64,000 nucleotides of DNA, taken from NCBI RefSeq assembly GCF_028368995.1, contig NZ_JAQNDL010000003.1:96001-160000 (forward strand), given 5' to 3'. The notes below the pieces were generated by a model, which was not told the DNA's origin, made no database searches, and saw only the letters and a program-made list of their open reading frames with translations. Position numbers and translations under genes: made by a program. Within the stretch, counting starts at the first letter, position 1, and every line of letters starts with the position of its first letter. The DNA comes from Nannocystis bainbridge. Its GTDB lineage: Bacteria > Myxococcota_A > Polyangia > Nannocystales > Nannocystaceae. Below, piece by piece: positions 1,931 to 63,936 of the stretch.

Positions 1931-2141
1931 CGGGTGAACCGCTCCCGACCGGGCGAGGAGCCGTCCTCGCCCTCGACAATCTTCGGGCCGCGCGCCTACC
2001 CTTCGAGACATGTCCCTTCGCGCGGACCGATTGCCGCGTCCGGGTATGACCATGTCGTTCATCCTGCGAGCGCGACTTGCGATCATGCGAATGGGCCGAC
2101 CCGGCCCACCCACGTGCATTCGCGTCGGCTCCGCCTGAGCG

Positions 2142-5100
2142 TCAGGCGGCAGCGGGGCCGCGCTTCTTGGCGCCGATGAGCTGCATGGCGAAGGCGATGC
2201 CGCTCTGCAGGGTGCCGTGCGTGGCGATGCCGCGGAGGTCGATGCCGAGGTCGACGAACAGGGAGGCCGTATCCGGGCTGACGCCGGTCAGCACCGTGCG
2301 CGCGCCGAGCAGGCGGAGCGCCGAGCCGGCCTGGATCAGCGTGATCGCGCCGCCGCTGTCGATCCCCTTCATGCCGGTGACGTCGAAGATGACGACGCGC
2401 ATGCGCCCGGCCTCCGCGCCCTGCAGGGCCGTCTGCAGCAGGTGATCGCAGCGGGTCGCGTCGAGCGTGCCGATCAGCGGCATGACGACGATCGCGTCGG
2501 TGATCGGGATCATCGGCGTCGAGAGCTCGGTGAGCATCGCCTGCTGCATGCGGATCATCTCCTCTTGCAGCGCCGCGCGGGCCTCCTCCGCCCGCTCTCG
2601 CTCGATCAGCTCCGCGGACAGGCGCTCGTTCGCGGCCTGCAGGGCGGTGGTGCGTTGCTCGACGTCGGACTCGAGGCGCTCGTTCGCGCGGGCGAGCGCG
2701 TTGCCGGCCTCGACGACGTGGCGGTACAGCAGGGCGTTCTCGACGGCGGTCACCGCCTGGGCGCACAGCACCTGCAGCAGCTCGACGCGGTTGCGGCTGA
2801 AGGCGTCGCGGATCAGGTGGTTCTCGACGACCAGGATGCCGCTCATGCGCCGGCGGTGCGCCAGCGCGAGGCACAGCACCGACTTGACCTGCCTCGCCAC
2901 GAGCGCGGGGTCGGCGGCGAATCGGGGGTCGCGCGCGACGTCGCCGAGCACGACCGCCTCGTGGGTGCGGGCGACGTATTGGACCAGGCTCGCCGGGACG
3001 TCGGGGCGGGCGGCGAGCGGCGTGCTGCTGACGAACTCGACCACCTCGGTGTCGATCGACGCTGCCGCCGCCAGCTCGAGCGTACCGTCGCGGTCGAGCA
3101 GCAGATATACGCGCGTGCCGCCCGCGTTCTGCATCACGATCCGCATCAGCCGATCGAGCAGCTTGTCGAGCTCGATCTCGCCGACGAGCGCCTGCCCGAG
3201 CCGCACGACGGTCGCCAGATCGAGGGCCGCGGCCGCGCCGAGGCCGACGGCGCCGCCATCGTCCGGCGTGGTCGTGCGCACCGGACCGGTGACCGCGGGC
3301 GCCGTCGTCGGCTGGGGAAAGTCGCGGGCGATCAGGGCCGCCTTCGCAGGAGCGCCCCAGCGCACGAACCCGTCGTACGCCGCGCGCATGTACACCGGGG
3401 CGATGAACGACCGTTGGCGGTCGCGGTAGAACTCGCCGCACAGCGCGCTCGCCAGCGCCTCGTACTGCACGAACCCGTTGCGCCGCGCCGACGCGATCGC
3501 CTGGTCGTAGAGCTCCTCGGCCTCGAGCGCTCGACCCGTGACGCGCGCCTCCTCGGCCCGCACGAGCAGGTACTTGTGCTCGAAGTTCTCGGGGCAATTG
3601 TCGGCCCAGCGCGCCAGCTTGTCGATGTCGTCGCGCAGCACTGCGCGGTCGGCCAGCGCCTGCGCGGCGTCGACGTCGCCGACGCGCGCGCACAGGGCCA
3701 GCGCCTCGTAGACGTGGAAGGTCGCCTCGATCGGCATTGCCATGACTGCGCCGAGCACCTCGCGCGCCGAAGCGGCGGCGGCGAGCGCCTCCTCGTGGCG
3801 TCCGTAGGTGTAGAGGAGCATCAGGCGGATGATGTGATAGAAGGCGATGCCGCAGCCGAAGCTCGCGGCGGTCACCTGCGCCAGGCACTCCTGGGCGTCG
3901 AAGTCGTCGCTGTCGAGCAGCGTGCCGGGGCGGACCCGGCCGGCGAGGCTGTCGAGGAATTGCTGCTGCAGGCGGATGGTCTGATACACCGCCTCGTTCT
4001 TGCTCTCGCGCGCGAACGCGGCGAACCGCTCCGACGCGCGGCGCGCCTCGCTCAGCGGGCTCCCCACCTCGATGTGCTGCCATACCGTCTCGAACGCGAG
4101 GAACGAGGCGTACACGAGGTCACCGGCGGAGATGCAGGCGTGGAAGGCCTGCTCGAGGATCGGGAAGTCGGTGCGCAGCGGGCTGCGCCAGAAGTTGATG
4201 TGGTCGCCGTGGAGGTGCAGCAGCGTGCCGCGCAGCTTGGCGTCGCCGAGCCGCTCGTTGAGCTGGATCGACATCTCCGAGAACGCGTAGCCGTTGGCGA
4301 CGTCGCCGAACACGCTGACGAGCATGAAGCCGTACACGCTGTAGGCGAAGCACGAGTCCTCAGCGTTGCCGTGGCGCAGCGAGAGGTTGACGGCCGTGAG
4401 CCCGAAGTACGGGAACACCTTCGGCCGGCCGATGTACGCGCACGGCATGATGCCGACCATCAATCCGAGGACGGCCCGGTGCGCCGGATCGGTCATCAGC
4501 GGCGCGTCGAGCAGCGTGGGCACCGGGCGCCCGGCGAGGTTGCCGGCGACCGCCGCGGCCTCGGCGGCCATCGCCGCCTGCAGCGCGGCGTCGTCGGCCG
4601 GGAGCTCGACGCCGAACAGCGCCAGCCCGCGCACGCCGAGCTCGACGCCGGCGTCGTAGCGGCCCGCGACCTGATAGAGGCGCATCTGTAGGATGTAGAC
4701 ATTCGCGTGGTCGACGCGATCGCGGGCGCGGGTGTGAATCCGGTCGAACAGCTCCTCCGCGCGCTCGAACGCGCCGGCGAGGTACTCACATTCGGCCAGC
4801 TCGCAGTGCAGCGCGTAGACGTGGGCGTAGTCGTCGTCCCACGCGGCCTCGGGCAGCAGCGCGACGCCGGCGCGCAGGTACTGGGCCGCCGCCGCGTAGG
4901 CGGTCGATTTCTTGGCGTGGCGGCCGACCGCGAGGTTCAGCGCCGACACCCGTCGCCGCTCGTCGGCGTCCAGCATCAGCTCGATGCCGAGGTCGAGGTG
5001 ATCGACGACGTCGAACAGCTCGTCAGGGCGCGGCTCGCCGCCGAGTCGCGCCAGCAGCAGCCGCCCGATCCGCAGGTGGGTCTCGGCGCGCTGCTCGGCG

Positions 5101-7202
5101 GCGACGAGCGCGTACGCGGCCTGCTGCACGCGATCGTGCGAGAAGTGGTACGACAGCTCGAGCGGCGCGCCGCGTTCGCCCGCGCGCGGCAGCGCCGGCG
5201 CGTGATGGACGAAGCGGTAGTCGTTGCTCTCGGGCACCACCAGGCCCTCTTCGAGCGCCTCCCACAGCGCGGCGGCGGTGGCCTCGGGCGACTCGGCGCA
5301 GATCGTCGCCAGCGCGGCGAGCGTGAACTTGTGACCGATGCACGCGGCCAGCCGCAGCACCCGCTGGGTCGCCTCGCTGCAGCGGCGCAGCCGCTGGGCC
5401 ATGAAGTCGAGGACGTTCGCGGTGACCTCGCGCGCCTCGATCGCGGCGATGTCCCAGGTGAACCCGCCCTCGCCGGCGCTCGCGCGCAGGAGCCCGTCCT
5501 GGTAGAGGCCGCGGAGGAACAGGCCGACGAAGAACGGGTTGCCGTCGGTCTTGCGGGCCACGACGCGCGCGAGCGGACCGGCCTGCTCGGGGGTGCAGCC
5601 GAGCACGTCCGCGAGCAGCTCGCCGAGGTGATGCGGGGCGAGCGGCCCGACCCGTAGATCGTGCACGGCGCGGCCCTTGCCGCGCAGCTCCTCGGCGGCG
5701 AGCGTCAGCGGGTGCGCCGGCCCGACCTCGTTGTCGCGGTAGGCCCCGACCACGAGCAGCCGCCGCGGCGACGGCGAGGCCAGGAACAGCTGCAGCAGCT
5801 TGAGCGACGCGAGGTCGGCCCATTGCAGGTCGTCGAGGAACAGCACGAGCGGCGCGTCGCCGCCGGCGAACGCCTGCACGAATCCGTCGAGCAGCCGGTT
5901 GAAGCGGTTCAGCCCCTCCGTCGGCCCGAGCTCCGGGGCCGCCGGCTGGAGGCCGATCATGTGCGTCAGCTCGGGGATCAGATCGACGAGCACCTGCGCG
6001 TTGCCGTCGGCCACCCGCAAGATCTCCTCGCGCACTCGGACCAGCCGCTCGCCGCCCTCGCCGAGCGTCTGTCGCAGCAGATCGCGGAACGCGTGGACGA
6101 AGGGCGCGTAGGGGGCGTTGCGCGCCAGTTGGTCGAACTTGCCGGCGATGAAGGTCCCGCCGTCGCGCGCGATCGTCTTGTGGAGCTCCTGGACCAGCGC
6201 GCTCTTGCCGATGCCGGAGTAACCGGCGACGAGCAGCAGCTCGGTCCCGCCGTCGCGCACGCGGTCGAACGCCTGCAGCAGCGTCGCCAGCTCTTCGTCG
6301 CGCCCGTAGAGCCGCTGCGGCAGTCGCAGCGCCCCGGCCGCCTCGTGGCGCGCGAGCGGGAAGGGCGAGACGGTGCCGGTGGCGTCGAGCTGGCGCAGGC
6401 ACTCCCGCAGATCGGCCGCGATCCCGTTGGCGCTCTGGTAGCGATCTTCGGGCGCCTTGGCGAGCAGCCGCATCACCAGCGCCGACACGGCCTCGGGGAT
6501 CTCGGCGACCTGGCGCGGGGAGGCGGGCACGCGCGCGATGTGGCTGTGGACCAGCTCGAGCGGGTCGTCGCCGTGGAACGGCGGGGCGCCGGTGAGCAGG
6601 TGGTAGAGCGTCGCGCCGAGCGAATAGAAGTCGGTACGGAGGTCGAGCGCCCGGTTCATGCGCCCGGTCTGCTCGGGCGACATATAGGTGAGGGAGCCCT
6701 CGAGGCCGTCGAGGCTCGTCGGTCGCTGCGCCTCGACCGAGAGGCGGGTCGCCAGGCCGAAGCCGACCAGGTGGACCAGCAGCGGCTCGGCGCGGACGAT
6801 GATGTTGGCCGGCTTGATGTGCTTGTGGATGACGCCGCTCGCGTGGACGCCGGCGAGGATTTCGCTGACCGCCGCGGCGATCGCCAGCGCCTCGCGCAGC
6901 TGGAGGCGACCGCGGCGGAGCACGACGTCGAGCGGCTCGCCCGGCGGCGACTCGAGCACGAGCGCGAGGTCGTCGCCGTGGGCCTCGAGCGCGTACGCCT
7001 TGACCACGCCGGGCACCGTGATGCCGCGAAGGATCGCATACTCGTGCTGCAGTCGGGCGACGTCTCTCGCCGTCGGCGGCGAGCGACGCGGCAGGTGCAG
7101 CGTCACCGGGGTGCCGTCTGCGGTGCGAAACCCGCGACACAGCACGGTCTCGGGCTCCTCATTCATCGACTCGACAATTGTGTATTGACCGAATGTGGAC
7201 AT
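2142..7202 (-). CDS. Multidomain sensor: Ser/Thr kinase-like + AAA ATPase + helical/TPR region + GAF + coiled coil + RsbR-type STAS
   Basis: YMSPEQTGRMNR (kinase), GYSGIGKS (Walker A), LFLDDLQWAD (Walker B), GAF segment KSVLCLAL...ENH...F, C-terminal LSTPMIPITDAIVVMPLIGTLD...FDVTGM...LRLLGARTVLTGV. Start chosen at ATG 7202. Confidence 0.9.
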   Translation of the reverse strand: MSTFGQYTIVESMNEEPETVLCRGFRTADGTPVTLHLPRRSPPTARDVARLQHEYAILRGITVPGVVKAYALEAHGDDLALVLESPPGEPLDVVLRRGRLQLREALAIAAAVSEILAGVHASGVIHKHIKPANIIVRAEPLLVHLVGFGLATRLSVEAQRPTSLDGLEGSLTYMSPEQTGRMNRALDLRTDFYSLGATLYHLLTGAPPFHGDDPLELVHSHIARVPASPRQVAEIPEAVSALVMRLLAKAPEDRYQSANGIAADLRECLRQLDATGTVSPFPLARHEAAGALRLPQRLYGRDEELATLLQAFDRVRDGGTELLLVAGYSGIGKSALVQELHKTIARDGGTFIAGKFDQLARNAPYAPFVHAFRDLLRQTLGEGGERLVRVREEILRVADGNAQVLVDLIPELTHMIGLQPAAPELGPTEGLNRFNRLLDGFVQAFAGGDAPLVLFLDDLQWADLASLKLLQLFLASPSPRRLLVVGAYRDNEVGPAHPLTLAAEELRGKGRAVHDLRVGPLAPHHLGELLADVLGCTPEQAGPLARVVARKTDGNPFFVGLFLRGLYQDGLLRASAGEGGFTWDIAAIEAREVTANVLDFMAQRLRRCSEATQRVLRLAACIGHKFTLAALATICAESPEATAAALWEALEEGLVVPESNDYRFVHHAPALPRAGERGAPLELSYHFSHDRVQQAAYALVAAEQRAETHLRIGRLLLARLGGEPRPDELFDVVDHLDLGIELMLDADERRRVSALNLAVGRHAKKSTAYAAAAQYLRAGVALLPEAAWDDDYAHVYALHCELAECEYLAGAFERAEELFDRIHTRARDRVDHANVYILQMRLYQVAGRYDAGVELGVRGLALFGVELPADDAALQAAMAAEAAAVAGNLAGRPVPTLLDAPLMTDPAHRAVLGLMVGIMPCAYIGRPKVFPYFGLTAVNLSLRHGNAEDSCFAYSVYGFMLVSVFGDVANGYAFSEMSIQLNERLGDAKLRGTLLHLHGDHINFWRSPLRTDFPILEQAFHACISAGDLVYASFLAFETVWQHIEVGSPLSEARRASERFAAFARESKNEAVYQTIRLQQQFLDSLAGRVRPGTLLDSDDFDAQECLAQVTAASFGCGIAFYHIIRLMLLYTYGRHEEALAAAASAREVLGAVMAMPIEATFHVYEALALCARVGDVDAAQALADRAVLRDDIDKLARWADNCPENFEHKYLLVRAEEARVTGRALEAEELYDQAIASARRNGFVQYEALASALCGEFYRDRQRSFIAPVYMRAAYDGFVRWGAPAKAALIARDFPQPTTAPAVTGPVRTTTPDDGGAVGLGAAAALDLATVVRLGQALVGEIELDKLLDRLMRIVMQNAGGTRVYLLLDRDGTLELAAAASIDTEVVEFVSSTPLAARPDVPASLVQYVARTHEAVVLGDVARDPRFAADPALVARQVKSVLCLALAHRRRMSGILVVENHLIRDAFSRNRVELLQVLCAQAVTAVENALLYRHVVEAGNALARANERLESDVEQRTTALQAANERLSAELIERERAEEARAALQEEMIRMQQAMLTELSTPMIPITDAIVVMPLIGTLDATRCDHLLQTALQGAEAGRMRVVIFDVTGMKGIDSGGAITLIQAGSALRLLGARTVLTGVSPDTASLFVDLGIDLRGIATHGTLQSGIAFAMQLIGAKKRGPAAA

Positions 7203-7508
7203 GCCCCGCCCGCTCTTTGTGGGCTGCGACCGAGATCGCGCCAGCAGCGAAGAACTCAATGTATTGACAATGCGACCCTACTCGGGATCCTCAGGCCGAG
7301 TCAAGCCTCCGCGCTCGGGACTTCTCCGATGTAGAGATCGGCTCCGCGCGCGACCCGCCCCCGCTGGCGAGCGACGGGGGTGTAGGTGATTTGTCACCGG
7401 CGAGTGTACACCCCGTGTCGCTACAAACATCGGCGGAGGTGAACACATCCGCGTTTGCACGCGAGCCCGGACCAGCAATCCCGATAAATCGCCGCGTGGC
7501 TGCACGAC

Positions 7509-8270
7509 GTGACGATCGAGGCGACCTCCTCCGAGCGAAGTGTCGGGCCCGATAAACGCCCGCTGCAACGACCGGAGCACCTCGTCGTGTTCGCCCGCGT
7601 GTACGGCCACCTGCGCTACTTCTATCCGGCCGAGGCGAGTACGTACGAGTGGTCGGTGCTCGCGGCCGACGGAGTCGAGGTGGCCGAGCGCGCCGAGGAC
7701 ATGGACGCGCTCGCCCGCGACCTCGAGCGATGGGCCGCGCGCATCGGTCCGGACATCCAAATCGCCGGGTCAGTCCCCGCCGCGGGAGCGCCCGATCCCG
7801 CCGGCCCGGGCTGGCGTCACACCGGCGTCTCCGGCCAGCGCACGATCTATCGCAGCGAGTTCGTCGCAGCCGACCATTCGGCTCCCGATGTCGTTGTCGC
7901 CGACGTTGGCAGCGGTCTCCACATTCGCTACCCGCGCGCATTCACCGGGCAGACGGCCCCGCTCGCCCTCGCCGAGCCGCCAGCGCTCGATGCCTGCGCC
8001 GAGCGTGACCGCCCGCGCAGCAATCGGCTCGCAGTGACGATCATGATGTGGAGCCTCCTCGAGCACTTCTACCCGTACCACGAGCTCATGCTCACCGACT
8101 GGCCCGGAGCGCTGGGCGTCGCTTTGCCCGCGGCGGCGACGGTCGGGACGCCGAGCGAGTTGATTCATGGGCTGCGGCGGTTGCTGGCTGAGCTGCGCGA
8201 CAATCATGTCCGCCTGTGGTACGGCCCCGAGCCGCGCTGCCGGCTGGGCATGGCGACGGCGACGGTCCCG
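7509..8270 (+). pseudogene. S41-family peptidase N-terminal fragment
   Basis: FARVYGHLRYFYP and RLAVTIMMWSLLEHFYPY...LRRLLAELRDNH match the helical N-terminal modules of S41 proteases. No catalytic domain; the frame degenerates after ~8270. Confidence 0.6.
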
Positions 8271-8284
8271 GGCAGCAGAGCCTT

Positions 8285-8510
8285 GCCGCCAGACCCGTCT
8301 CCGCGTCGCGTAGATGTTCGCCATCCGCCGGCGCGAGCTGCAGGGCCCTGCCTCCGACGCGCCGCTCGAACGCCCGCAGCATTCGTCCTCCGCCCGACCA
8401 CAGCACCACCGGCACCTCCCCGAGCTCGTCGAGGATCACCGGTTCGGATGCCAGCCGGCTCGCCTCGTACGCCCTCGCCTTCGATCCCCGCCACGAACGC
8501 GCATGGACGT
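8285..8510 (-). pseudogene. DUF3179-like protein C-terminal fragment
   Basis: GSKARAY...VILDELGEVPVVLW...RAFERRVGGRALQL...LRDAETG resembles DUF3179 proteins. No start codon or N-terminus. Confidence 0.5.
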
Positions 8511-8573
8511 CCACCGGGGCCGTACTGCGAACCATGAAGCGAAGTTCGCTCCTCGCGCCTTGGCCGCCGACCG

Positions 8574-9455
8574 TCAGTCGATCATTTGCGGCATGCCGAG
8601 CGCCGTGAGTAGACCTCGCTGAACCTCCGAGGCAGCGTGGTTGAGGGCCTCCGTGCCCGCACCTCCTCCACTGGGATCGACGACGACGCGGAGCGGCCGC
8701 GTCCCAGCGGGGGCTTCCACGAGTGCCACCACGGCCCGCGCCACCTCCTCGGGGTCCGAAGCTCCTGGACCGTCGTGCATGGCCGTAATCATCTCTTGCA
8801 GCTTCGAGGCCGCGGCCTCCAAGCCGTAGCCATTCGCTCTTTCGGCATCGGCGCCCGTCACCGTCGAAGTGAGGATTCCGGTCTTGAAGACTCCCGGCTG
8901 GAGGATCGACACCTCGACGCCCGTTGGCTTGAGCTCGTACCGATAGCTCTCGGCCATTGCTTCGAGAGCCCACTTGGACCCGCAATAGATGCCATTGAAA
9001 GGCGCAGTCAGGCGGCCCATCGTGCTGGAGATGTGAATGAGCAGCCCCGCCCGACGCTTGCGGAGCGCCGGCAAGACGGCGCGGTTCACACGATGTGCGC
9101 CGACCACGTTCGTGTCGAGCTCCGCGAGGACTTGCTCTGAGGTGAAGGTTTCGTTGATTCCGCCGACCGCGTAGCCCGCGTTGTTTACGATGACATCGAG
9201 GTGCCCGGCGGCACGTTCGGCGGCCGCTACAGCCGTGGACACGGAACGGTCATCAGTGACGTCCAGCTCGACGACGTGAAGCGTGAGCCGCTCGGCTTCC
9301 GCGATGGCTCGAAGCTCGGCGGCCGCGCGCTCGTTCTTCGTGTTGGGCGCCCGCATCGTCGCGAACACGCGGTGGCCGCGGCGGGCGAGGGCGAGGCTGA
9401 TGAGGCGACCGAGGCCGCTATTGCTGCCAGTGACCAGTACGTTGCTGTTGCTCAT
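8574..9455 (-). CDS. Short-chain dehydrogenase/reductase (SDR)
   Basis: TGSNSGLG, NNAG and YCGSK catalytic motif. Confidence 0.93.
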   Translation of the reverse strand: MSNSNVLVTGSNSGLGRLISLALARRGHRVFATMRAPNTKNERAAAELRAIAEAERLTLHVVELDVTDDRSVSTAVAAAERAAGHLDVIVNNAGYAVGGINETFTSEQVLAELDTNVVGAHRVNRAVLPALRKRRAGLLIHISSTMGRLTAPFNGIYCGSKWALEAMAESYRYELKPTGVEVSILQPGVFKTGILTSTVTGADAERANGYGLEAAASKLQEMITAMHDGPGASDPEEVARAVVALVEAPAGTRPLRVVVDPSGGGAGTEALNHAASEVQRGLLTALGMPQMID

Positions 9456-9545
9456 GTCCCGAGCGTGACGCCGAGCCGGTCGTGCCACAAGAGACGAATC
9501 CGCATCTCAGTAGTGCATCCAAGCACGAAACGGACGCTAGCGTCG

Positions 9546-11809: not shown

Positions 11810-11845
11810 GCCGCGACATCAACATCGTACAAGACGGCGCGACGC
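11733..11845 (+). repeat. Direct repeat copy 1 (araC 3' end plus downstream motif)
   Basis: Near-identical to 12467-12568. Confidence 0.9.
11815..11841 (+). promoter_or_regulatory. Putative AraC-dependent operator/promoter GACATCAACATCGTACAAGACGGCGCG
   Basis: Identical 27-bp copy at 12538-12564. Each copy lies just upstream of a gene start. AraC binding is inference. Confidence 0.6.
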
Positions 11846-11866
11846 TTCCTGTACGATCGCACCTCG

Positions 11867-12448: not shown

Positions 12449-12466
12449 TGCACGAGGTCGCTCCCG

Positions 12467-12568: not shown

Positions 12569-12621
12569 CAGACGGCCATCTTCGTCCGGCGCCGCTTCGA
12601 TTCGCCGCGCCCGAGAGCCCC

Positions 12622-14416: not shown

Positions 14417-16189
14417 ATGGACATGTCCTTTCAGGCATGCGGGGCGCGCCGACCCGGCTCGCGCCCCCGCGCCGGCGCGCGCGCGGCCTCGACCGCGGTC
14501 CTCGCGGTCGCCCTCGGGGCGTCGTCGGACGCGCTCGCGCGACCCACGACCTGGCCCATCGAGCCTGTCCTTGCAGACAGCCTCTCCGAGGCGCGGTACC
14601 CGGCGCTCGGACATGTCCCCACGGACAGCCTCGCTAGCACGCAGCGCCCGGCGAGCGGACATGTCCCCACGGACAGCCTCTCAGTCGGCCCCGCGCTCCC
14701 CCGTAGCGACGCCGCGCCGCCGCAGGTCTCCGCCCCGGTGCCGGACCTCCGCGGCGCTCCGGCAGCGCGTGCCCCTGTCCCCGCGGACATGCGTCGTCCG
14801 CCGGCCTTGAAGCCCGGATCGCCGGCGCAGTCCGCCGGCGCGACCGAGGCCGCCGCGCTCGCCGGCCGCGGCGAGGGCCGGCCGGCCGCACCGCCGCCCT
14901 ACCGCCTGCTGCGCGCCGACGAGGACTACCGTTACCTGCGCGACCGCGGCCGCCGGGCCGGCTTCCTGGATGTCCTCAAGTACATCCCGCTCGGCCCGCG
15001 CGGCCGCGTCGCGCTCAGCTTCGGCGGCGAGACGCGCCAGCGCCTCGACTGGTTCCGCAACCTCGACTGGGGCGCCGGTCCGCCGCGCTCGCTGTCGTGG
15101 ATGCAGCGGTACATGTTCCACGCCGAGCTCCGGGCGCCGTACTTCCGCGCGTTCGCCCAGGTCAAGAGCGGGCTCGAGACGGGGCGGCCCGGCGGGCCGC
15201 GGGCGATCGATCGCGACGACTTCGACTTCCACCAGGCCTTCGCCGACTTCGACCTCGAGCGCCCGGGCCTGCGCCTCATCGTCCGCGCCGGCCGGCACGA
15301 GCTCGCGTTCGGCTCCGGCCGCCTCGTCTCGCCGCGCGAGGGCCCCAACGTGCGCCGCAGCTTCGACGGCGTGTCGGTCATCCTGTCCGTCCGCCGGGTC
15401 CACGCGCATCTGTTCGTCACCCGCCCGGTCGCCACCGTGCCCGGCGTCCTCGACGACGGCTGGGAGCGCGGTCAGTGGTTCGCCGGCGCCTACCTGACCG
15501 TGCCCTCGCCGCTGCGCGGCGGCCACGTCGACGTCTACGCGCTCTACCTCGACCGCCCTGAAGCCGAGTACCACCGCGGCCGGGCCCACGAGCGCCGCCT
15601 GTCCCTCGGGACACGTTGGTTCGGCGCCGCCGGGCGACTCGACTACAACGTCGAGGCGGTGCTGCAAACGGGGCGCTTCGGCGCCGCGCCGCTGCTCGCG
15701 TGGACCGTGGCCAGCGACACCGGCGTGCGCCTGCCGCTGCCGTGGGACCCGCGGCTCGGCCTGCGGCTCGACGTCGCCTCCGGCGATCGCGGCCCGGGGC
15801 GGCCCTTCGGCACCTTCTCCGCGCTGTTCCCCAAGGGCTCGTACTTCGGCGAGGACGCGCTGGTCGGGCCCGCCAATTTCCTCGACGCCCACCCGATGCT
15901 CACGCTGACGCCGGTCGAGCCACTGAGCCTCACCCTCGACTGGGTGGTCCTCGGCCGGTACAGCCTCGCCGACGGCCTCTACAACGTCCCCGGCGAGCCG
16001 ACGATCGCCGACCCCGGCGGCGCCCGGTTCGTCGGTCACCGCGCCGGCGCCACCCTCGAGGCCGAGCTCGGGCGGCACGTCGGCTTCGTCGTCACCGTCG
16101 GCCGCTTCTTCCGCGGCCCGTTCCTCGCGCAGGCCGGACGCACCCGCGACGTCGACTTCCTCGCCACCTGGCTGACCCTCAAGTTCTGA
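14417..16189 (+). CDS. Alginate-export-family outer-membrane beta-barrel
   Basis: Signal-like segment, LLRADEDYRYL...KYIPL, GRHELAFGSGRLVSPREGPNVRRSFDG, terminal LTLKF. Start uncertain. Confidence 0.85.
   Translation: MDMSFQACGARRPGSRPRAGARAASTAVLAVALGASSDALARPTTWPIEPVLADSLSEARYPALGHVPTDSLASTQRPASGHVPTDSLSVGPALPRSDAAPPQVSAPVPDLRGAPAARAPVPADMRRPPALKPGSPAQSAGATEAAALAGRGEGRPAAPPPYRLLRADEDYRYLRDRGRRAGFLDVLKYIPLGPRGRVALSFGGETRQRLDWFRNLDWGAGPPRSLSWMQRYMFHAELRAPYFRAFAQVKSGLETGRPGGPRAIDRDDFDFHQAFADFDLERPGLRLIVRAGRHELAFGSGRLVSPREGPNVRRSFDGVSVILSVRRVHAHLFVTRPVATVPGVLDDGWERGQWFAGAYLTVPSPLRGGHVDVYALYLDRPEAEYHRGRAHERRLSLGTRWFGAAGRLDYNVEAVLQTGRFGAAPLLAWTVASDTGVRLPLPWDPRLGLRLDVASGDRGPGRPFGTFSALFPKGSYFGEDALVGPANFLDAHPMLTLTPVEPLSLTLDWVVLGRYSLADGLYNVPGEPTIADPGGARFVGHRAGATLEAELGRHVGFVVTVGRFFRGPFLAQAGRTRDVDFLATWLTLKF
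14566..14682 (+). repeat. 48-bp-period tandem repeat, each unit carrying TGTC-N6-GACA, inside the porin N-terminal linker
   Basis: Perfect motifs start at 14566, 14614 and 14662. Protein reads PVLADSL / HVPTDSL / HVPTDSL. Confidence 0.85.
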
Positions 16190-23513: not shown

Positions 23514-23519
23514 CCGATC

Positions 23520-27849: not shown

Positions 27850-27877
27850 CCTCGACGCCCCTCCGCCTCGGCATGGT

Positions 27878-29839: not shown

Positions 29840-29997
29840 CGAAGGGACATGCCCGATCGGGCATGTCCCTTCGTTTATGCCCTCAAATACATGTCGTTCT
29901 GGACATGTTCTATCGTTCATGGCTGTCTGATGCGCTTGAGCACCACGAGAGGACATGCCCCCGAGGGCATGTCCTCTCGGCCATGTCTCTGGATCAA
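29836..29997. repeat. Intergenic phased array of 14-bp TGTC-N6-GACA-like units
   Basis: Units start at 29850, 29864, 29878, 29892, 29906, 29920, then 29956, 29970, 29984. Confidence 0.9.
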
Positions 29998-31262: not shown

Positions 31263-31302
31263 TGTCCCCCGGGACAGCTTTTTAAAGATGTCTTTCAGGA
31301 CA
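31263..31302. repeat. Two perfect TGTC-N6-GACA units upstream of the ABC operon
   Basis: TGTCCCCCGGGACA (31263) and TGTCTTTCAGGACA (31289). Confidence 0.85.
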
Positions 31303-31354: not shown

Positions 31355-32752
31355 GTGTCGCGTCCGCACGCCGCGCTCTGGCTCGCCGGCCTCCTCCTGT
31401 GGGCGTTCGCCGCCCTGGCCGCGCCGGCCGCGGGCCTCGTGCTCGCCGCGGCCGAGCCGGGCACGCCGGTCCGGCTGCCGACGCTGCTGGCGATCGCCGG
31501 CGACAGCCTCGTCCTCGCGGCCGCGCTCGCCGGCCTGGCGCTCGCCCTCGCCTACCCGCTGGCGCGCGCGGTCACGGCTCCGTGGCTGCTGCTGTTCGTC
31601 ATGATCGCCCCGCTGGCCCGGGCGATCGGCGCGCTCGCGCTGGGCCTGTCCCCCGGGACAGGTGCCGTCGCGCTCGCGCGGCTCGCCGGCGATGTCCCGC
31701 TGGCCGCCCTGCTGCTGCGCGCGCGGCTGCGGACCCGCCCGCGCAGCTGGCTCGACGCCGCCGCCGATCTCGGCGCCGGGCCGTGGCGGCGCTTCGTCAC
31801 CGTCGAGTGGCCGCACCTGCGCCCCGCCTACGCGCTGGCCGCGGTCTGCCTGGTCTTGCTGGCCCTCGGCGACGCCACGATCGCCGCGGTCGCCGGCGGC
31901 GGCAAGCGCTTCACCCTCGGCCTGGCCCTGCGCGAGGCCGTCCTGCTCGACGCTCATCCGCGGCGCGCCGCGGCGATCGCCGCCCTGTTCGCCGCGATCG
32001 CCGTGCCGTGCGCGTGGGCGCTGGCCCGCGGCCTGCGAGCGGCCGGGCGCAGCCGCGACGACCGTCAGCCGCCAGCCGCCCGCGCCGGCCTCGCGGTGCT
32101 CGTCGTCTGCGCCGCCCCGATCGCCGCGCTGGTAGTCCCGGCAGTGACATGGCCTTTGGGACAGGGCGATGCCCTCCTGGCCGCCCAGCTGCCCGCGACC
32201 CTCGCCAGCGCCGGCGCCTCGGCCGTGCTCGCCGCGGCGCTCGGTTGCGTCACCGGCCTGGCCGCGCCCGCGCGCTGGAGCCCCGCGCTGCTGCTGCCGC
32301 TGGCGCTGCCGCCGGCGGTCTACGGCGCGGCGTGGCTGGTGACCGCGCAACAGCTCGGCTGGCGGCCCGGGCCGCTCCTGACCTTTGTGACATTGCTTCC
32401 GGGACAGGTTGCCATCGCCCACGCCGGCGCCGCCGCGGCCTTCGCCGACCTCGGGCGGCTCGCCGACGCTGCCCGCGACCTCGGGGCCGGGCCGGCCGCG
32501 CGCGCCCGCTGGTTGTGGTGGCCGCTGGCGCGGCCGATCGGCGCCGCGCTGGCGCTGGTGGCCTTCGCCCTCGCCCTCGGCGACGCCGGCGCGGCCGGCT
32601 TCACCTCCGGTCCTGGCGGCAGCACCCTCGCCGTCGGCCTCGAGATCCTCGGCCGCGGCGGCGATCTGGGCGCCGTGCCGCGCTGGGCGCTCGCCCTCGG
32701 CCTCGTGCCCTTGCTGGCGGCCGCGCTTGCTGCTCTCCTGCGCCGGCGATGA
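31355..32752 (+). CDS. Fused double ABC permease (PotB/PotC-like, divergent)
   Basis: Two EAA-like loops (LDAAADLGAGP, LADAARDLGAGP); stop overlaps the ATPase start (ATGA). Confidence 0.8.
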   Translation: MSRPHAALWLAGLLLWAFAALAAPAAGLVLAAAEPGTPVRLPTLLAIAGDSLVLAAALAGLALALAYPLARAVTAPWLLLFVMIAPLARAIGALALGLSPGTGAVALARLAGDVPLAALLLRARLRTRPRSWLDAAADLGAGPWRRFVTVEWPHLRPAYALAAVCLVLLALGDATIAAVAGGGKRFTLGLALREAVLLDAHPRRAAAIAALFAAIAVPCAWALARGLRAAGRSRDDRQPPAARAGLAVLVVCAAPIAALVVPAVTWPLGQGDALLAAQLPATLASAGASAVLAAALGCVTGLAAPARWSPALLLPLALPPAVYGAAWLVTAQQLGWRPGPLLTFVTLLPGQVAIAHAGAAAAFADLGRLADAARDLGAGPAARARWLWWPLARPIGAALALVAFALALGDAGAAGFTSGPGGSTLAVGLEILGRGGDLGAVPRWALALGLVPLLAAALAALLRRR

Positions 32753-33819
32753 CGCTCTCGCTGCGCGCGCTGACCAAATCCTACGCCGGGCGCCTCGCGC
32801 TCGCGGAGGTCGACGCCGAGCTGCCCGCGGGCGGCTACACCTGCCTCATGGGCGCCTCGGGCTCGGGCAAGACGACGCTGCTGCGGATCGTCGCCGGCCT
32901 CGAGCGCCAGGATCGCGGCAGCGTGCTGCTCGACGGGCGCCCGCTCGACGATCTGCCGGCCGAGCGCCGCCCGGTCCACACCCTGTTCCAGGACTACGCC
33001 CTGTTCCCGCACCTCGACGCCGCCGACAACGTCGCCTTCGCCCCGCGCCTGCTCGGCCTGCGCGGCCGCGAGCTGACCGCCCGCGTGCGGGCATTGTTGG
33101 CAGATGTCGGATTGGACATGTCCTTCGAGACACGCAAGCCCGCGGCCATGTCCGGCGGCGAGCAGCAGCGGCTGGCCCTCGCCCGCGCCCTGGCCGGCGA
33201 GCCGCGCTGGCTGCTGCTCGACGAGCCGCTGGCCGCCCTCGATCGCCCGCTGCGGGCCGGCCTGCGCCGCCTGCTGCGCGACGTCACCCGCCGGCGCGGC
33301 CTCGGCTGCCTGCACGTCACCCACGACCCCGAGGAGGCGCTCGCGCTGGCCGACCGCCTGCTCGTGTTCGGCGGCGGCCGTCTGCTCGCCGCCGGCGCCC
33401 CCGCCGCGCTCTACGCCGCCCCGCCCTCGCTCCCCGTCGCCCGCCTGCTCGGCGAGATCACCCCCGAGCCGGGCGGCGACGGCTGGCTGCGCCCCGAGCA
33501 CCTGCGCCTCGCCGTCGGCGGCGCCTCGAAGGACATGTCCCCATCGACATGTCCCGAAGACCATGCCCTAAACGACATGCCCCATGGGCCTGCCGATCTG
33601 CCGCGAGGGTCAGGCGCCAGCGATCGCCCCGCCGCCCGCGCGCTCGGCACGGTGCGGGCCGTCGCCTGTCTCGGCGATCGCTGGGAGGTCGAGGTCGACA
33701 TCGGCGGGCGCGTCCATCTGTCGCGGGTCCCCGGCGATCCGCGCTGCGGGCCCGGAGAGCCCGCCTGCGTGACGTGGGACCGTGCGCGCGTGCTGCGGTT
33801 CGCCGGGCACGAGCCCTGA
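32749..33819 (+). CDS. potA: Polyamine ABC transporter ATP-binding protein
   Basis: GASGSGKT, FQDYALFPHL, MSGGEQQR, LLLDEP, VTHD; TOBE-like C-terminus. Confidence 0.88.
   Translation: MTLSLRALTKSYAGRLALAEVDAELPAGGYTCLMGASGSGKTTLLRIVAGLERQDRGSVLLDGRPLDDLPAERRPVHTLFQDYALFPHLDAADNVAFAPRLLGLRGRELTARVRALLADVGLDMSFETRKPAAMSGGEQQRLALARALAGEPRWLLLDEPLAALDRPLRAGLRRLLRDVTRRRGLGCLHVTHDPEEALALADRLLVFGGGRLLAAGAPAALYAAPPSLPVARLLGEITPEPGGDGWLRPEHLRLAVGGASKDMSPSTCPEDHALNDMPHGPADLPRGSGASDRPAARALGTVRAVACLGDRWEVEVDIGGRVHLSRVPGDPRCGPGEPACVTWDRARVLRFAGHEP
33522..33591. repeat. Five phased 14-bp units inside potA
   Basis: CGCCTCGAAGGACA TGTCCCCATCGACA TGTCCCGAAGACCA TGCCCTAAACGACA TGCCCCATGGGCCT. Confidence 0.9.
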
Positions 33820-39010: not shown

Positions 39011-39121
39011 AGGGCCCTCGGCTCGCCCGACGAACGCCGCGCCTGCGACGTTCTCATCACGATCACCACCCGCGAGGCGAAGGCACTCGAGGCTGTCCCC
39101 AAGGACAGCTGGCGCCCTCGC

Positions 39122-47557: not shown

Positions 47558-47878
47558 CGCTATTTACAGGTGACTCGCTGCGAGTCGAGGGCTGACCTCG
47601 ACCGCGGCGGAGCGAGCCTTCGGCACTCGCTGCGGCGCGCTGCGTCGGCCCGCGGGCCGCGACTCGCCCATCCGCCTCATCGCCCTCGTTTCCCCTTCGG
47701 GTCGCCCCCGAAGCCACGTCGGCCGCGATCTCGCGCATTGCGTCATATGTCCCGAAGGACATCTCGAATCGACGTTCACCGCGCCCGGGTGCGCGCTCGC
47801 CCGTGGGTGCCCGGGGAGACACGTCGACGCACGCATCGGCGGGCAATTGTTCCGCCGCCTGCTGACGCTCTGGTTTGT

Positions 47879-57628: not shown

Positions 57629-57708
57629 CAGCGCGGCTGTCCTGAAGGGCATCTCACAGCATGTCTCAGTTGCCTTGAGGCGTGCTGACGCGTGGCTGCG
57701 AGCGCGGG

Positions 57709-59212: not shown

Positions 59213-62200
59213 TCAGCGAGCCCGGCGCCGGCGCAGCGTCAGCAGCAGCAGCGTCAGCGCCGACAGCCCGGCCCCGCCGGGCCCGTCCTGGCGGCAGCCG
59301 CAGCCGCTCTCGTCGGTCGCGCCGCCGCCCGTGTCGCTGTCCGTGTCGCCGCCCGAGCCCGTCGAATCACTCGCCTCGGTGTCGCTGCCCGCGTCCGTCG
59401 CCGAGGTGGTCGGCTCCGGCCCGGTCTCGCTCGAAGCACCCGTCGTCGGCAATTGCCCGCTCGAGCCGTCCGAGTCCGACCCGCCGCTCGTCGTCGAGTC
59501 ACCGTCCACCGAGCAATCGGCCTCGCAGCCGTCGCCGCCCGCCGCGTTGCCGTCGTCGCACTGCTCCCCGCTGTCGACCACCCCGTCGCCGCAGCCGGCG
59601 TCCGAGCAGTCGGTGCGGCACGCGTCGGCCGCCTCGTCGCTGTTGTTCGCGCCCTCGTCGCAATCCTCGCCGACGCTGACGATCCCGTCGCCGCACACCG
59701 CCGCCGGCGCGTCGACCACCCCGACCACGCACAGCGCGTCGAGCGTCCAGCCGCCCATCTCGAGCCCGCCGTCGCTGCGCAGCTCGTACTTCAGCGTCAC
59801 CGCGTCGTTCACCACCGACGCCGTCAGGTCGACGTCGTGGAACCGCCACTCGCGGTCCGTGTGGTGCGTGCTCGCGTCGTTCATCATCAGGCTGGCGAAG
59901 TTGGTCCACACCGGCTCGTCGTTGGCGTAGATGCGCGCGCGGTCGAAGAACCCGTCCTCGATGTTGAGCCAGCGGCGGTACTGCAGGCGCACCTGCGAAT
60001 AGCCGGTCGTGTCGATCACCGGCGACTGCGCGAAGTTGGTCTTTTCCGACTGATACGTCCCGTTGAAGTTGCCGCCGCCGAGGTCGTTGCCGAACACGCG
60101 CGTCCCGTCGAACGCCGCCTGCGGGTCGCCCGACGCCGTCGGCGAGAGCGGCTCCTGCCACATCCAGTCGTCGGCGCCCTCGCCTTGCTGCCCCATCGAC
60201 AGCCCGTGCGTCCAGCCGTCGGCGGCCGGGTCGGACTCGAAATCGGTGCAGTAGATCTCCTCGACCGCGCCGACGAAGAACTCGTAGAACGGATCGGCCG
60301 CGTTCTCCGGGTACTGCAATTCGGTCGCGTCCGCGAACGTGATCTTGACCTGGTACTGCACCACGCTGCCGGCCGGCTGCTGCGGGATCTTGGCCGTGAT
60401 CTGATCGGGCGCCACGTCCATGGCGATCACCCCGCCGACGTCCTGCTGCTCGCGCAGGCGCCACGTCAGCTCCGCCGACTCGATCGCCCCGCCGCTGCAC
60501 TGCCCGCCCGCGCCGTCGACCGCGACCGACACCGTGTACTCGGCCAGCTGCGGCAGCGCCACCCCCGGCGCCTCGACGTCGACCCCGAGCTTGAACAGCC
60601 CGTGCTTGGCGAACGCGCTGTTGATCAGGCACTGGTTGGGCGTGCCGTTGGCGAGGTCGCCGTCGTCGTCGTCGGCCGCCAGCGCCTCGAAGTACATGCT
60701 CGGGATGTCGACCGCGCGGCGGATCGACTCGTAGTAGATGTGATCGGCGTGGGCCACCGCGCCCGGCCCCTGGTCCTCGACCAGCGCCTTGCGCAGGTCC
60801 CACAGCGCGCCGGCGATGATGAGGCCCGTGATGTGCGTGTCGCCGTCGACGTCGTCGGGCCACACCGCCTCGCTGCCGTTGGGGTCGATGTGGCGCAGCG
60901 GCCCGGGGTCGTTGAGGAAGAAGCCGATGCCCATCGCCGGGTCGTCGACCACCGTCGCCGCCAGGTAGTCGCTCACGCCCTCGGACAGCGCCGGGTCGAA
61001 GTTACCGACGCCCTGGATGATGGCGTGGTCGTGCACCCCGTGGCCGTACTCGTGATAGACGATGTCGGCCACCCGCCCGGTGTTGTTGCACTGGTTGCTC
61101 TGGCGGAAGAAATTGATGTTGCCGTCGTAATAGGCGTTGCAGCTCTCGTTGATGTTGACGGTCGCGGCGAGCTGCTGGGCGACGAACTCGAAGGTGGGGT
61201 CGATCTGGCGCACGTAGTCGATCACGTGGTTGGCGTGCACGAACGTCGAGATCTGCGCGTCGACCAGCTCGTCGTTGGCCGCGTTCCAGTTGACCGTCTG
61301 GTTCGGCTGCAGGTTGAGGTTCGCGGTCGCCTCGTTGCCCGCGTCGTTGGCGACCGTCACCTGCGTGCCGCTGGCCCGCGTCGTCACCATGGTCGCATTG
61401 TTGCCGTTCCACATCACGTCGCCGGTCGGCGAGCTGGTGACGTTCATCCCGCCCACCGTCAGCGCCGCGCGGTTGGCCGGCCAGTTCTGCCGCTCGCCGC
61501 CGGGCTCGCGCACTGGCGCGTTGTAGGCCACCTTGCCGCTGGCGAACAGCAGCGTCTGCTTGCGCGCCACCGGCTCGCCCGTGGCCGCGTCGACGTAGAC
61601 CCGCCAGCGCCCCAGCGGCGCCGTGGTCGCCAGCTCGACCGGCACCACCGTCGCGTACTCGACCCCGCCCCCGCGCACCAGCGGCAGCACCACCGCCTCG
61701 TGCGCGGCCTCGAAGGAGACTGTCCCCGGGGACAGGTCGCGCTCCAGCCACTCGCTCGCGGCCGTGCGCGCCTGGGCGGCGCCCACCTGGCGGACCGCCG
61801 GCGCCGGCACGTGCGGCAGCGCCTCCGAGCCGATCATGAACAGGCGGTCGTTGCGGAAGCGGAAGCTGACCTGCCCGCCCTCGACCGCCACCCCGCGGAC
61901 CCGCTGCACGAACCCGAGTGTGCGCATTCCGCCGCTCTCGACATTCGCCACCAATGTGAAGTCCGCCGCCGACGCCCCCGGCGCCAGCAGGCCGACGTGA
62001 CGGGCCAGGAACGCCCGCGCGAGCCGCTCGGCCGCCACGGGCGAACCCGCGCTCCCGGGCGCCGCGATCCCGGCGCCCCAGATCCGCCGCACCACGTCGG
62101 TATCGCGGTCCCACACCGCCCACGTCTGCGGCCCCATCTCGGCCACCAGCCGCGCCCACGCGCCCCCGTGCCGCGCCGGCGCCTGGTACCACGTCAGGTC

Positions 62201-62514: not shown

Positions 62515-62542
62515 TGTCTCCGAGGACATGTTGCTTCAGACA
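62515..62542. repeat. Two phased TGTC-N6-GACA units in divergent intergenic region
   Basis: TGTCTCCGAGGACA TGTTGCTTCAGACA. Confidence 0.85.
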
Positions 62543-62670: not shown

Positions 62671-63786
62671 ATGGCCAACAGCAAGACGACGAAGCCAAAG
62701 ACCTCAGGCAAGGCCGCGGCGGGCAAACCCAAGACGGGCAAAGCCACCGCGAAGAAATCCGCCGCGAAGAAGGCCGCCGCGAAGAAGGCCTCCACGAAGA
62801 AGACCACGGCGAACAAGACCACGGTGAAGAAGACCGCGGTGAAGAAGACCGCGGTGAAGAAGCCCTCGGCGAAGAAGACCACGGCGAAGAAGACCACGGC
62901 GAAGAAGACCCCCGCGAAGAAGACCGCCGCGAAGAAGACCGCCGCGAAGAAGACCCCCGCGAAGAAGACCCCCGCGAAGAGGGCCACAACCAAGAAGCCC
63001 ACCGCGAACAAGCCCACTGCGAGCAAGCCCACCGCGAGCTTTCCGACGGACGAGGTGCTGAGCGAGATCGAGGACAACCTGATCTCGTACTCCTACAATT
63101 TCAGATCGCCGGCCACCGACCGCGAGGGCAAGGCCTGGCGGAAGATCGCCTTCTCGGGTCCGCTCAAGCTCCTGGCCAAGCTCGTCAAGCACCCCGTGGC
63201 GCAGCAGCTGGAGACGCTCACCATCGTCGGCATCGACGCGAAGGCCGACAAGGTCATCCGCGTGCTGTCCGAGGGCCCTCCGCTCGCGGCGTTGCGCGAG
63301 CTGCGTCTTGGCTTCCTGCCCGAGGGTCAGAGCGATTTGGTCGGCTTCGAAGAGCGCGACTGCGGCGACCTGACCGCCCTGTCCCGGGCCTGCCCGCGCC
63401 TGGAGATCCTGCGGCTGCTCTGCCCTGGCTTCGTGGCCGCCGATCACCCCACGCTCCGGGTCCTGGACGCGCGCACGGGGGCCCGGCCGGCGTCGGTGGC
63501 CTCGCTGGCCAAGGCGTCGCTACCGCGCCTGGAGGAGCTTCACCTCGGCTTCGGGGTCGAGGACGACGAGCCCCTGTATGCATCGCTGATCTGGCCGCCG
63601 AACACGCTCCAGCCGCTGCTCGACGGCAAGGCGCTGCCGACGCTGCGCCGGCTGTGCCTGTGGCCCATGCCGGAGGACGACGGCCTGTTCAAGCTGGCCA
63701 GGGCCTCGCCGCTGGCGAAGCGCGCGAAGATCGAGCTGCGCAGCACCGACGACCTCGAGGCCGACACCGACGCTTACACGCTCTGA
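62671..63786 (+). CDS. Histone H1-like Lys/Ala/Thr-rich N-terminus fused to LRR-like domain
   Basis: AKKT(A/P/T) pentapeptide repeats, then LRELRLG, CPRLEILRL, LPRLEELHLGFG, LPTLRRLCL. Confidence 0.8.
   Translation: MANSKTTKPKTSGKAAAGKPKTGKATAKKSAAKKAAAKKASTKKTTANKTTVKKTAVKKTAVKKPSAKKTTAKKTTAKKTPAKKTAAKKTAAKKTPAKKTPAKRATTKKPTANKPTASKPTASFPTDEVLSEIEDNLISYSYNFRSPATDREGKAWRKIAFSGPLKLLAKLVKHPVAQQLETLTIVGIDAKADKVIRVLSEGPPLAALRELRLGFLPEGQSDLVGFEERDCGDLTALSRACPRLEILRLLCPGFVAADHPTLRVLDARTGARPASVASLAKASLPRLEELHLGFGVEDDEPLYASLIWPPNTLQPLLDGKALPTLRRLCLWPMPEDDGLFKLARASPLAKRAKIELRSTDDLEADTDAYTL
62749..63039 (+). repeat. 15-bp coding tandem repeat (GCGAAGAAGACCNCN)
   Basis: Directly visible; encodes the AKKTx units. 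Confidence 0.9.
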
Positions 63787-63922
63787 CCGGGCTCACAGCT
63801 CGGCCACCGCTCGCCTGTCCACATATCGTGCGAGCGGCCCGACGTCTGCACGTCGCATAGCCGCACGAACACGTCGGTCCACGCGTGCTCGAGAAGCACA
63901 CCTCCGCGCGCGGCCGGGGACA

Positions 63923-63936
63923 TGTCCCGAAAGACA
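63923..63936. repeat. Perfect TGTC-N6-GACA unit preceded by GACA
   Basis: GACA-TGTCCCGAAAGACA. Confidence 0.8.

Follow-up and report, generated by a model that had tools for sequence, protein, structure and literature searches.

Bacterial genome words of very high abundance are few, HIP1, the uptake sequences and the repetitive extragenic palindromes (REPs) being examples, and the purpose of HIP1 has stayed unsettled after decades. REPs are extragenic hairpins of 20-40 nt. The DNA uptake sequences (DUS) and uptake signal sequences (USS) form inverted pairs at the 3' ends of genes, show a biased reading frame and favour poorly conserved protein segments. Sites of the parS, matS, Noc and RacA types are palindromes of 13-16 bp recognised by dimeric proteins, and are present in few to some tens of copies per chromosome within one region. 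For uptake sequences, a taxon-specific word is described that numbers hundreds to thousands per genome and lies in genes as well as between them (PMC2346458). HIP1 of cyanobacteria is over-represented 15- to 300-fold, both inside open reading frames (ORFs) and in the DNA separating them, and conserved between genomes; its function is described as still open, with a chromosome or nucleoid role being proposed (PMC5861425). Here we describe a dispersed palindrome, TGTC-N6-GACA, in a 64-kb stretch of the genome of the myxobacterium Nannocystis bainbridge (the whole stretch is referred to as the window), together with four syntenic loci of about 21 kb each from related species, giving 148 kb of Nannocystis DNA in all.

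Within the window (G+C content 71.1%), the perfect palindrome was detected 18 times against 0.74 expected, a 24-fold excess, with a density of 0.28 copies per kb over at least nine separate places. The initial annotation, made by eye, had listed 18 starts and estimated less than one expected copy. A pattern search returned exactly these 18 positions, and 100 dinucleotide-preserving shuffles gave a mean of 0.74 and a maximum of 4, none reaching 18. When the spacer was varied from 0 to 20 nt, 18 copies were found at 6 nt and no more than 3 at any other length. Among 3,328 combinations of palindromic 4-mers and spacers (0-12 nt), TGTC with a 6-nt spacer (18 copies vs 0.54 expected) was the strongest word with more than two copies, being outranked only by trivial AT words that occurred once or twice. 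The runners-up were the same word in shifted register, namely ATGT with a spacer of 8 (9 copies), CTGT with 8 (8 copies), CATG with 10 (10 copies), GACA with 0 (8 copies) and GTCC with 4 (11 copies). Copies with at most one mismatch were also in excess, 45 against 18.3 +/- 4.2 expected. Over the 148 kb of Nannocystis DNA, 72 perfect copies were counted vs about 1.7 expected from half-word counts, an excess of about 43-fold. An origin by chance or as a codon artefact was rejected by the dinucleotide shuffles, by the synonymous-codon shuffles described below and by the scan of all palindromes.

The near-copies proposed at 14424, 32150, 32379, 47808, 56321 and 57638 are true one-mismatch copies, whereas that at 1997-2066 is weak, including only a GACATGTCC junction near 2005-2013 and giving no match of at least 10 bits with the position matrix. 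The stretches reported as empty (2.1-14.4, 16-29.8, 39.2-47.7 and 48-57.6 kb) each contain no perfect copy, and the flush junction GACATGTC between abutting units was found 8 times in the window.

The distribution of the word among relatives was examined by a homology scan of genome contigs with the ABC-transporter binding protein (33829-34872) as the query, which gave a total of 67 loci. The four best loci (L001-L004), from N. punicea, N. pusilla, N. sp. RBIL2 and N. exedens, encode proteins of 89-90% amino-acid identity to the query and are syntenic with the window, the transporter genes being 88-95% identical in nucleotides. Perfect copies per locus numbered 21 in N. punicea, 12 in N. pusilla, 10 in N. 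sp. RBIL2 and 11 in N. exedens, and 3 were found in a distant Nannocystis metagenome-assembled genome (MAG; L005). Outside the genus, one copy was detected in L007 and none in the loci of Enhygromyxa, Plesiocystis and five other Nannocystaceae or Polyangia MAGs, while the 54 unrelated loci (L014-L067) contained 0-2 each. Spacers other than 6 nt never exceeded 3 copies in any of the 67 loci. Matrix hits per kb followed the same order, with 0.87 for the five Nannocystis sequences, 0.38 for L005, about 0.06 for L006-L013 and 0.025 for L014-L067 (932 kb). The word is enriched in all five Nannocystis sequences, more weakly in the distant MAG, and is a trait of the genus Nannocystis, a point that the initial annotation had missed.

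Based on the profile of the 72 copies, the word reads approximately (G)AC[A/C] TGTC C NNNN G GACA [T/G]. Position -1 is A in 33 and C in 39 copies, never G or T; C occupies position -2 in 57 of the 72 and position 5 in 59; position 10 is G or A in 68, and position +1 is T or G in 62. Since positions in the spacer and flanks are constrained, the real word is 16-20 bp long, and its core is a dyad of about 16 bp, [A/C]TGTC(C)-N4-(G)GACA[T/G]. The earlier description of a spacer of constant length and variable sequence holds for the length of 6 nt, which is specific, but not for the sequence, as both spacer and flanks are constrained rather than free. Within the window, TGTCC-N4-GGACA occurs 10 times and GGACATGTCC 6 times. 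Beyond about 20 bp no conservation was observed in the profile, and neither an element body, nor ends, nor a longer conserved element was detected in it.

The units often form arrays. CATG cores in the window recur at distances of 14, 28 and 42 bp (10, 5 and 5 times). Of 52 distances of up to 130 bp between neighbouring matrix hits, for which the matrix included the window's own sites, 20 were exactly 14 bp, in agreement with the side-by-side units of 14-bp period first noticed by eye; 51 and 54 bp were found 4 times each, 28 bp 3 times and 48 bp twice. A matrix trained on the four other genomes alone still detected 29 window sites of at least 10 bits, against 0-1 in each of five shuffles. Tandem Repeats Finder missed the arrays, the units being too degenerate. 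Within L001-L004, arrays of 51- and 54-bp period are located inside an ORF that starts with an ECF-sigma domain, and in comparison of L002 with L003 these arrays differ by indels of about unit size and contain decayed units. The array periods of 48, 51 and 54 bp are all multiples of three, as expected for repeats in coding sequence. The sites in the window are as follows.

14419..14437: junction GGACATGTCC with a one-mismatch unit (14424-14437), 7 nt past the amidohydrolase stop codon, 17.1 bits
14566..14789: four perfect units (14566, 14614, 14662, 14776), in the N-terminal linker of the porin
14971..14984: one-mismatch unit, in the porin coding sequence, 15.9 bits
15600..15613: perfect unit, in the coding sequence of the porin barrel (RLSLGTRW)
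29845..29983: array in the intergenic region where the alpha/beta-hydrolase and MYXO-CTERM genes converge, composed of 29845-29868 (double-unit hairpin), 29892-29905 (perfect unit) and 29951-29983 (double-unit hairpin plus one-mismatch unit)
31263..31302: two perfect units at a distance of 26 bp, between the divergently oriented MYXO-CTERM and ABC permease genes
31647..31660: perfect unit, in the permease coding sequence (GLSPGTG)
32150..32163: one-mismatch unit, in the permease coding sequence, 14.9 bits
33105..33132: pair of abutting perfect units, within the coding sequence of the ABC ATPase (DVGLDMSFET)
33531..33590: four in-frame units, repeating every 14 bp, within the linker of the ATPase
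39094..39107: perfect intergenic unit, the flanking genes being convergent
47748..47761: perfect unit; a possible start codon (MSRRTS) is provided by the ATG at 47747, in frame with a 780-codon ORF
57638..57651: one-mismatch unit, located 10 nt past the stop codon of a BON-domain gene, 12.9 bits
59068..59081: perfect intergenic unit, both flanking genes being on the minus strand
61721..61734: perfect unit, in the coding sequence of a 1044-aa protein (DLSPGTVS)
62515..62542: perfect unit with the top score (29.5 bits) and an abutting one-mismatch unit, between divergent genes and upstream of the H1-like gene
63918..63936: junction GGACATGTCC with a perfect unit, downstream of the H1-like gene

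The unit is a strict dyad with a fixed 6-nt spacer, the centres of its half-sites being 10 bp apart. Because the symmetry is strict, the spacer fixed and the letters conserved rather than their pairing (see below), recognition of duplex DNA by a homodimer is the most economical reading. The dimeric protein suggested by the initial annotation fits this anatomy, while the binder itself is deduced from the sequence. Our preferred interpretation, to which we assign a probability of roughly 0.45, is that TGTC-N6-GACA represents a highly iterated, genus-specific word which would be recognised by a homodimeric duplex-DNA-binding protein and kept abundant by selection or drive. On this model, a homodimeric, sequence-specific protein would read the word through two half-sites of 4-5 bp that are separated by one turn of the helix and lie on the same side of it, and units abutting at 14 bp would place dimers side by side, each turned by about 120 degrees relative to its neighbour. 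Selection or a protein-linked drive would hold about 0.3 perfect copies per kb (0.5-0.9 per kb including degenerate copies), and the word would accumulate where it is tolerated, that is, in intergenic DNA, beside start and stop codons, and in variable or disordered protein linkers. Inside linkers the word would dictate codon choice and even peptide sequence, and abutting units, inverted repeats by construction, would also form very stable hairpins just 3' of stop codons. Candidate purposes include chromosome structuring, marking of self-DNA for uptake, recombination or repair, and methylation. A bolder version appears doubtful: thousands of dyad copies genome-wide would be read by an abundant dimeric protein tiling the DNA at a 14-bp pitch, and the demand for sites would rewrite codons, create linkers and supply the sequence context of start codons and 3' ends.

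As analogies the initial annotation had named parS, matS and the ram sites of RacA. The Nannocystis word shares with parS, matS, Noc and RacA sites the dimer-type palindrome, and its abutting arrays would allow side-by-side binding. It differs from them in number and placement, with 18 perfect copies in 64 kb at nine or more places, many of these within coding sequence (CDS), and no ParB-, MatP- or RacA-like gene was linked to it. With a density far above that of ordinary regulons and of these chromosome-organising sites, a distribution among unrelated genes and copies inside CDS, it resembles the few known genome words instead, and HIP1 and words of the DNA-uptake-sequence type are the closer precedents.

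The copies are located in both coding and intergenic DNA. Ten of the 18 window copies lie within 52.3 kb of CDS (0.19 per kb) and eight within 11.7 kb of intergenic DNA (0.68 per kb), so that the intergenic density is about 3.5 times that of CDS. Both classes are in excess. The 10 CDS copies compare with 0.73 expected when synonymous codons were shuffled within each gene under a fixed protein sequence (200 shuffles, maximum 4) and with 0.30 when codons were permuted, and the 8 intergenic copies compare with 0.12 expected. As noted by eye, copies are found inside CDS and in the gaps of convergent and of divergent gene pairs; with both tandem orientations, which also occur, the intergenic copies cover all four possible arrangements, and units lie just 3' of stop codons at 14419, 29845 and 57638. 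That the majority are in CDS, with the units lying in lineage-specific, variable protein linkers, had been overlooked. For the 42 CDS copies over the five sequences, frame 2 was used 26 times (reading x-Val-x-x-Asp-x), frame 1 15 times ([Leu/Met]-Ser-x-x-Thr) and frame 0, which encodes Cys, once. The CDS copies are written with rare codons.

The genes for the ABC transporter illustrate this placement. In the ATPase gene (32749-33819), the abutting perfect pair at 33105-33132 is read as DVGLDMSFET; GAT, GGA, TTG and ACA serve as A/T-ending codons here, and third codon positions (GC3) in the genes of this genome are about 90% G+C. This pair is perfect in all five Nannocystis sequences, while eight outgroups carry different peptides of similar length (DPALAE, AARLYA and others). 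The four in-frame units at 33531-33590 encode the linker between the nucleotide-binding and C-terminal parts of the ATPase. An insert of 35-70 aa is present at this linker in every Nannocystis sequence, variable and rich in motif-encoded peptides; L007 shows a gap of 35 residues at the same place, and the insert of the L005 ATPase is short and carries two matrix hits that abut, each one mismatch off. The permease unit at 31647-31660 (GLSPGTG) is also perfect in all five Nannocystis sequences, the L001 permease having Met in place of Leu and still retaining [A/C]TGTC. Of 16 site-by-genome comparisons made over the ABC transporter block, which are few and non-independent, 13 retain all eight fixed letters (background 0.44-0.49).

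Copies placed in CDS and intergenic DNA alike, wherever they are tolerated, would also be expected if a DNA-modification or repair system, such as an orphan Type I-like methyltransferase or biased mismatch repair or recombination, drove near-matches towards the word in the absence of any architectural or regulatory role. The excess of one-mismatch copies points in the same direction. Some modification enzymes use bipartite symmetric sites of the 4+6+4 form, and a neutral-replenishment view parallel to this explanation has been discussed for HIP1. Words of the HIP1 type are tied to orphan methyltransferases in PMC4390886 and PMC13756078. On the other hand, neither the exact 14-bp abutment nor the flank preferences would be expected from a modification site alone, and no DNA methyltransferase was found among the scanned window ORFs, a negative of little weight given a genome size of about 12 Mb. 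We consider this explanation distinctly unlikely.

Whether the palindrome acts as a hairpin or as a letter code can be judged from covariation. Among the 72 copies, the flank and spacer positions, including the pairs 5/10 and 6/9, were no more Watson-Crick complementary than column shuffles; the exception was the central pair, complementary in 34 of 72 copies vs 22.9 +/- 3.3. Compensatory double variants were not enriched, TGCC-N6-GGCA occurring 6 times though its half-words are far commoner than TGTC. A hairpin maintained by covariation was rejected on these two grounds. Single units folded no better than shuffles (z -1.2 to -2.1). Two abutting units necessarily form an inverted repeat, because each unit is its own reverse complement, and such double units fold strongly: the one at 29838-29880, which is followed by TTTAT, at -33.3 kcal/mol (z -8.8) and that at 29943-29985 at -31.6 kcal/mol (z -6.5). 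Strong double-unit hairpins located directly after stop codons were another feature missed by the initial annotation.

These hairpins are the ground for supposing that the word is mainly an RNA-level signal, providing transcript 3' ends, stabilisers or processing hairpins, with the DNA symmetry merely mirroring the stem. Double units are very stable, lie 6 nt past the hydrolase stop codon and 22-26 nt from both stop codons in L001-L003, and the unit at 31262-31277 is followed by a T-run. The single units, which fold like shuffles, and the absence of covariation speak against it, as do the many copies inside CDS or upstream of genes. A scan of the whole window with Rfam at gathering thresholds gave no match, and only one of four terminator-like sites found in a terminator and promoter scan of 28-40 kb, the above unit with the T-run, coincides with a unit. 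Most units lack both a stable stem and a T tract, so they do not behave as intrinsic terminators. As an account of the word as a whole, an RNA signal is very unlikely. No tRNA or tmRNA gene was detected in the window.

The arrays at gene ends were compared between genomes at the MYXO-CTERM gene, which encodes a secreted protein. All six 3' ends inspected (one each in the window, L001, L002 and L004, and two in L003) carry CATG cores with a 14-bp period, and the five from L001-L004 have four cores pairing into two hairpins, while the letters between the cores vary from genome to genome. A motif unit is also present upstream of the gene in every genome, about 100 bp from each copy. The conserved 3' position amid diverging letters supports recognition of the word by a dimeric protein, and the retention of sites in the ABC block is suggestive in the same sense. 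The gene is single-copy in the window (29994-31196), L001 and L002, and is tandemly duplicated in L003 (4445-5653 and 6093-7208) and L004 (3254-4438 and 4763-5983); three of the four duplicate copies were inspected, and each retains its own 3' four-unit array. A divergent region that measures about 160-330 bp in the window, L002 and L003 is filled in L001 by three tandem units of about 405-412 bp (6243-7359), 87-93% identical and with 2-3 motif units each. Alignment of the divergent regions and of this repeat yielded little information.

Arrays were also found in the alginate-export-family porin (14417-16189), where a signal-peptide-like start is followed by a linker of about 100-130 aa with four perfect copies, two of them in a 48-bp direct repeat (16 aa, GHVPTDSL). 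Porin orthologues of N. sp. SCPEA4 and N. punicea are given as 588 aa in the source records, with 100% query coverage, and start with MSFQ; the MSFQ start in the window is the ATG at 14423, inside the GGACATGTCC junction at 14419-14428. These full-length orthologues in source records support the linker as coding. Nannocystis orthologues contain variable numbers of HVPxD-type peptides, and most or all of the linker is absent from three non-Nannocystis homologues (a Planctomycetota MAG, a metagenome record and Rhizobium mayense). Start codons within the word (ATGTCC..., Met-Ser) are probable for the porin, for the 780-codon ORF and at L001 13645-13659, where the transmembrane segment 3' of the ECF-sigma domain begins with MSGGT at a unit.

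Such in-frame, lineage-specific array inserts in the ATPase and porin linkers are what might be expected of a selfish palindromic element of the REP or miniature inverted-repeat transposable element (MITE) type, copied by a transposase (for instance of the REP-associated tyrosine type) or by another process and persisting only where harmless, in intergenic DNA or in frame in disordered linkers. Rickettsia palindromic elements persist in-frame in disordered linkers. This is the main rival to recognition by a dimeric protein. The word is dispersed and specific to the genus, its density between genes is about 3.5 times that in CDS, it clusters after stop codons, and its double units fold at -32 to -33 kcal/mol. 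Copy number varies across species, with whole units gained and lost, and the threefold repeat of about 410 bp in L001 carries 2-3 units per copy. REPs and bacterial interspersed mosaic elements (BIMEs) are likewise dispersed, species- or genus-specific palindromes between genes and after stop codons, with a copy number that varies among relatives. In contrast to these, single units of the Nannocystis word are 14-16 bp long and fold weakly, too weakly for hairpins, the stems show no compensatory change, and CDS holds the larger part of the window copies, some of them in protein segments of unchanged length that are otherwise conserved. Conservation in the 72-copy profile is confined to about 16-20 bp, which falls short of the defined element of about 100 bp or more, with conserved body, terminal repeats and target duplication, expected of the MITE or Rickettsia type. 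Pfam scans of 37 window ORFs and 38 more from the window and L001-L004 detected no REP-type transposase. The sole DDE transposase fragment (23510-24235, covering the first ~85 of 435 profile positions) lies about 5.6 kb from the nearest motif copy, within the 16-29.8 kb stretch that has no perfect copy. On balance we regard an element of this type as unlikely. The earlier exclusion of simple terminators, REP hairpins and ordinary operators is supported.

Operators of one ordinary regulon, recognised for example by a helix-turn-helix dimer of the LexA, LuxR or PadR type in a TGT-N8-ACA frame, would share the half-sites of one helical turn, 10 bp apart. The window sub-classes CTGT-N8-ACAG (8 copies) and ATGT-N8-ACAT (9 copies) would suit such a frame, CTGT and ATGT frame strings being present in LexA and PadR papers and CTGNCCNNNNGGNCAG in CviR papers, and the unit about 100 bp upstream of each MYXO-CTERM gene copy has the position of an operator. 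The density of about one perfect copy per 3.5 kb is too high for this, however, and the sites are not confined to promoters, 10 of 18 being in CDS and others at 3' ends. The neighbouring genes have no common functional theme, and no cognate regulator is encoded beside the arrays. A single regulon is highly improbable, the least likely of the explanations considered. A site of the CRP/MrpC type was rejected, since the dyads of these proteins are 2 bp wider.

Several observations weigh against the preferred interpretation, a word read by a homodimer. The genome-wide abundance is extrapolated from one chromosomal neighbourhood, the window and its four syntenic loci. The division into CDS and intergenic copies relies on our own crude gene calls based on GC3, some of which are wrong. 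The conservation test has little power at 88-95% nucleotide identity. Arrays with periods of 48, 51 and 54 bp gain and lose whole units between species, the extra segments of the ATPase and porin linkers resemble repeat-bearing DNA that has been inserted, and a proliferating element or slippage would yield an identical picture of the arrays. The decay of many array units indicates that selection does not act on every copy. The double-unit hairpins after stop codons may give part of the copies a role at the RNA level. Among the Pfam-scanned ORFs of the window and L001-L004, no binder gene was identified and no regulator gene was consistently located beside the arrays.

Among the described genome words, HIP1 is the most similar: both are lineage-restricted palindromic words, in order-of-magnitude excess, and found in CDS and intergenic DNA. 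HIP1, GCGATCGC, is a contiguous 8-mer, whereas the Nannocystis word is bipartite, with a 6-nt spacer, a length of about 16 bp, flush 14-bp arrays and hairpins. Identity with HIP1 itself was rejected; GCGATCGC is not notably enriched in the window, with 23 copies vs 12.5 +/- 3.3 in dinucleotide shuffles (one of 100 reached 23), and the mild excess probably stems from codon usage. The uptake sequences of Neisseriaceae and Pasteurellaceae resemble the Nannocystis word in taxon specificity, density, double units after stop codons, frame bias (26/15/1) and preference for variable linkers, and differ from this spaced dyad in being asymmetric 9-12-mers.

No prior description of the word was found in the open-access literature, including papers on palindromic, repeat or over-represented motifs of Nannocystis, and the motif strings were met in the full-text literature in p53 papers alone. 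We treat the identity of GGACATGTCC with a p53 half-site as coincidence. A term search in the main text of a survey of spaced motifs in prokaryotes gave no mention of myxobacteria. At odds a little short of even, we tentatively class the word as a bipartite variant of the highly iterated kind, one for which no description was found in the open-access literature.

On the bolder version above, the word would be to myxobacteria what HIP1 is to cyanobacteria, with an anatomy that would allow the binder to be fished out directly. A further, unrelated example, from a myxobacterial genome of 12-13 Mb, would offer an independent and experimentally easier route to the question of why bacteria retain such words in thousands of copies, as the clear dimer-type architecture and flush arrays suit a pull-down experiment. 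The word distorts codon usage and creates lineage-specific protein linkers, and its position on start codons and 3' ends has consequences for gene calling. DNA of recent acquisition in Nannocystis genomes may be recognisable by the absence of the word.

Some additional features of the window were noted. The gene flanked by motif units at 62515 and 63923 (62671-63786) encodes a protein of 371 aa, in which the N-terminal ~125 aa consist of pentapeptide repeats rich in Lys, Ala, Thr and Pro, encoded by a 15-bp unit repeated 19.4 times (62747-63037). These repeats resemble histone H1-like DNA-binding proteins, below curated cut-offs, and the C-terminal part is similar to the STM4015 family. The region 7300-9500 has no convincing ORF by GC3 and no motif copies, with G+C falling to 0.667 at 8-10 kb, and may represent decayed or foreign DNA. 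An unusual fusion is encoded at 24287-26962, an 890-aa pyridoxal-dependent decarboxylase with a C-terminal pair of EF-hands, and 27019-27912 encodes in one ORF a regulator combining a MerR-type helix-turn-helix with a TetR N-terminal domain. Two long frames, 11810-12448 and 12061-14412, overlap upstream of and across the amidohydrolase gene, and could reflect a frameshift or an N-terminal extension.

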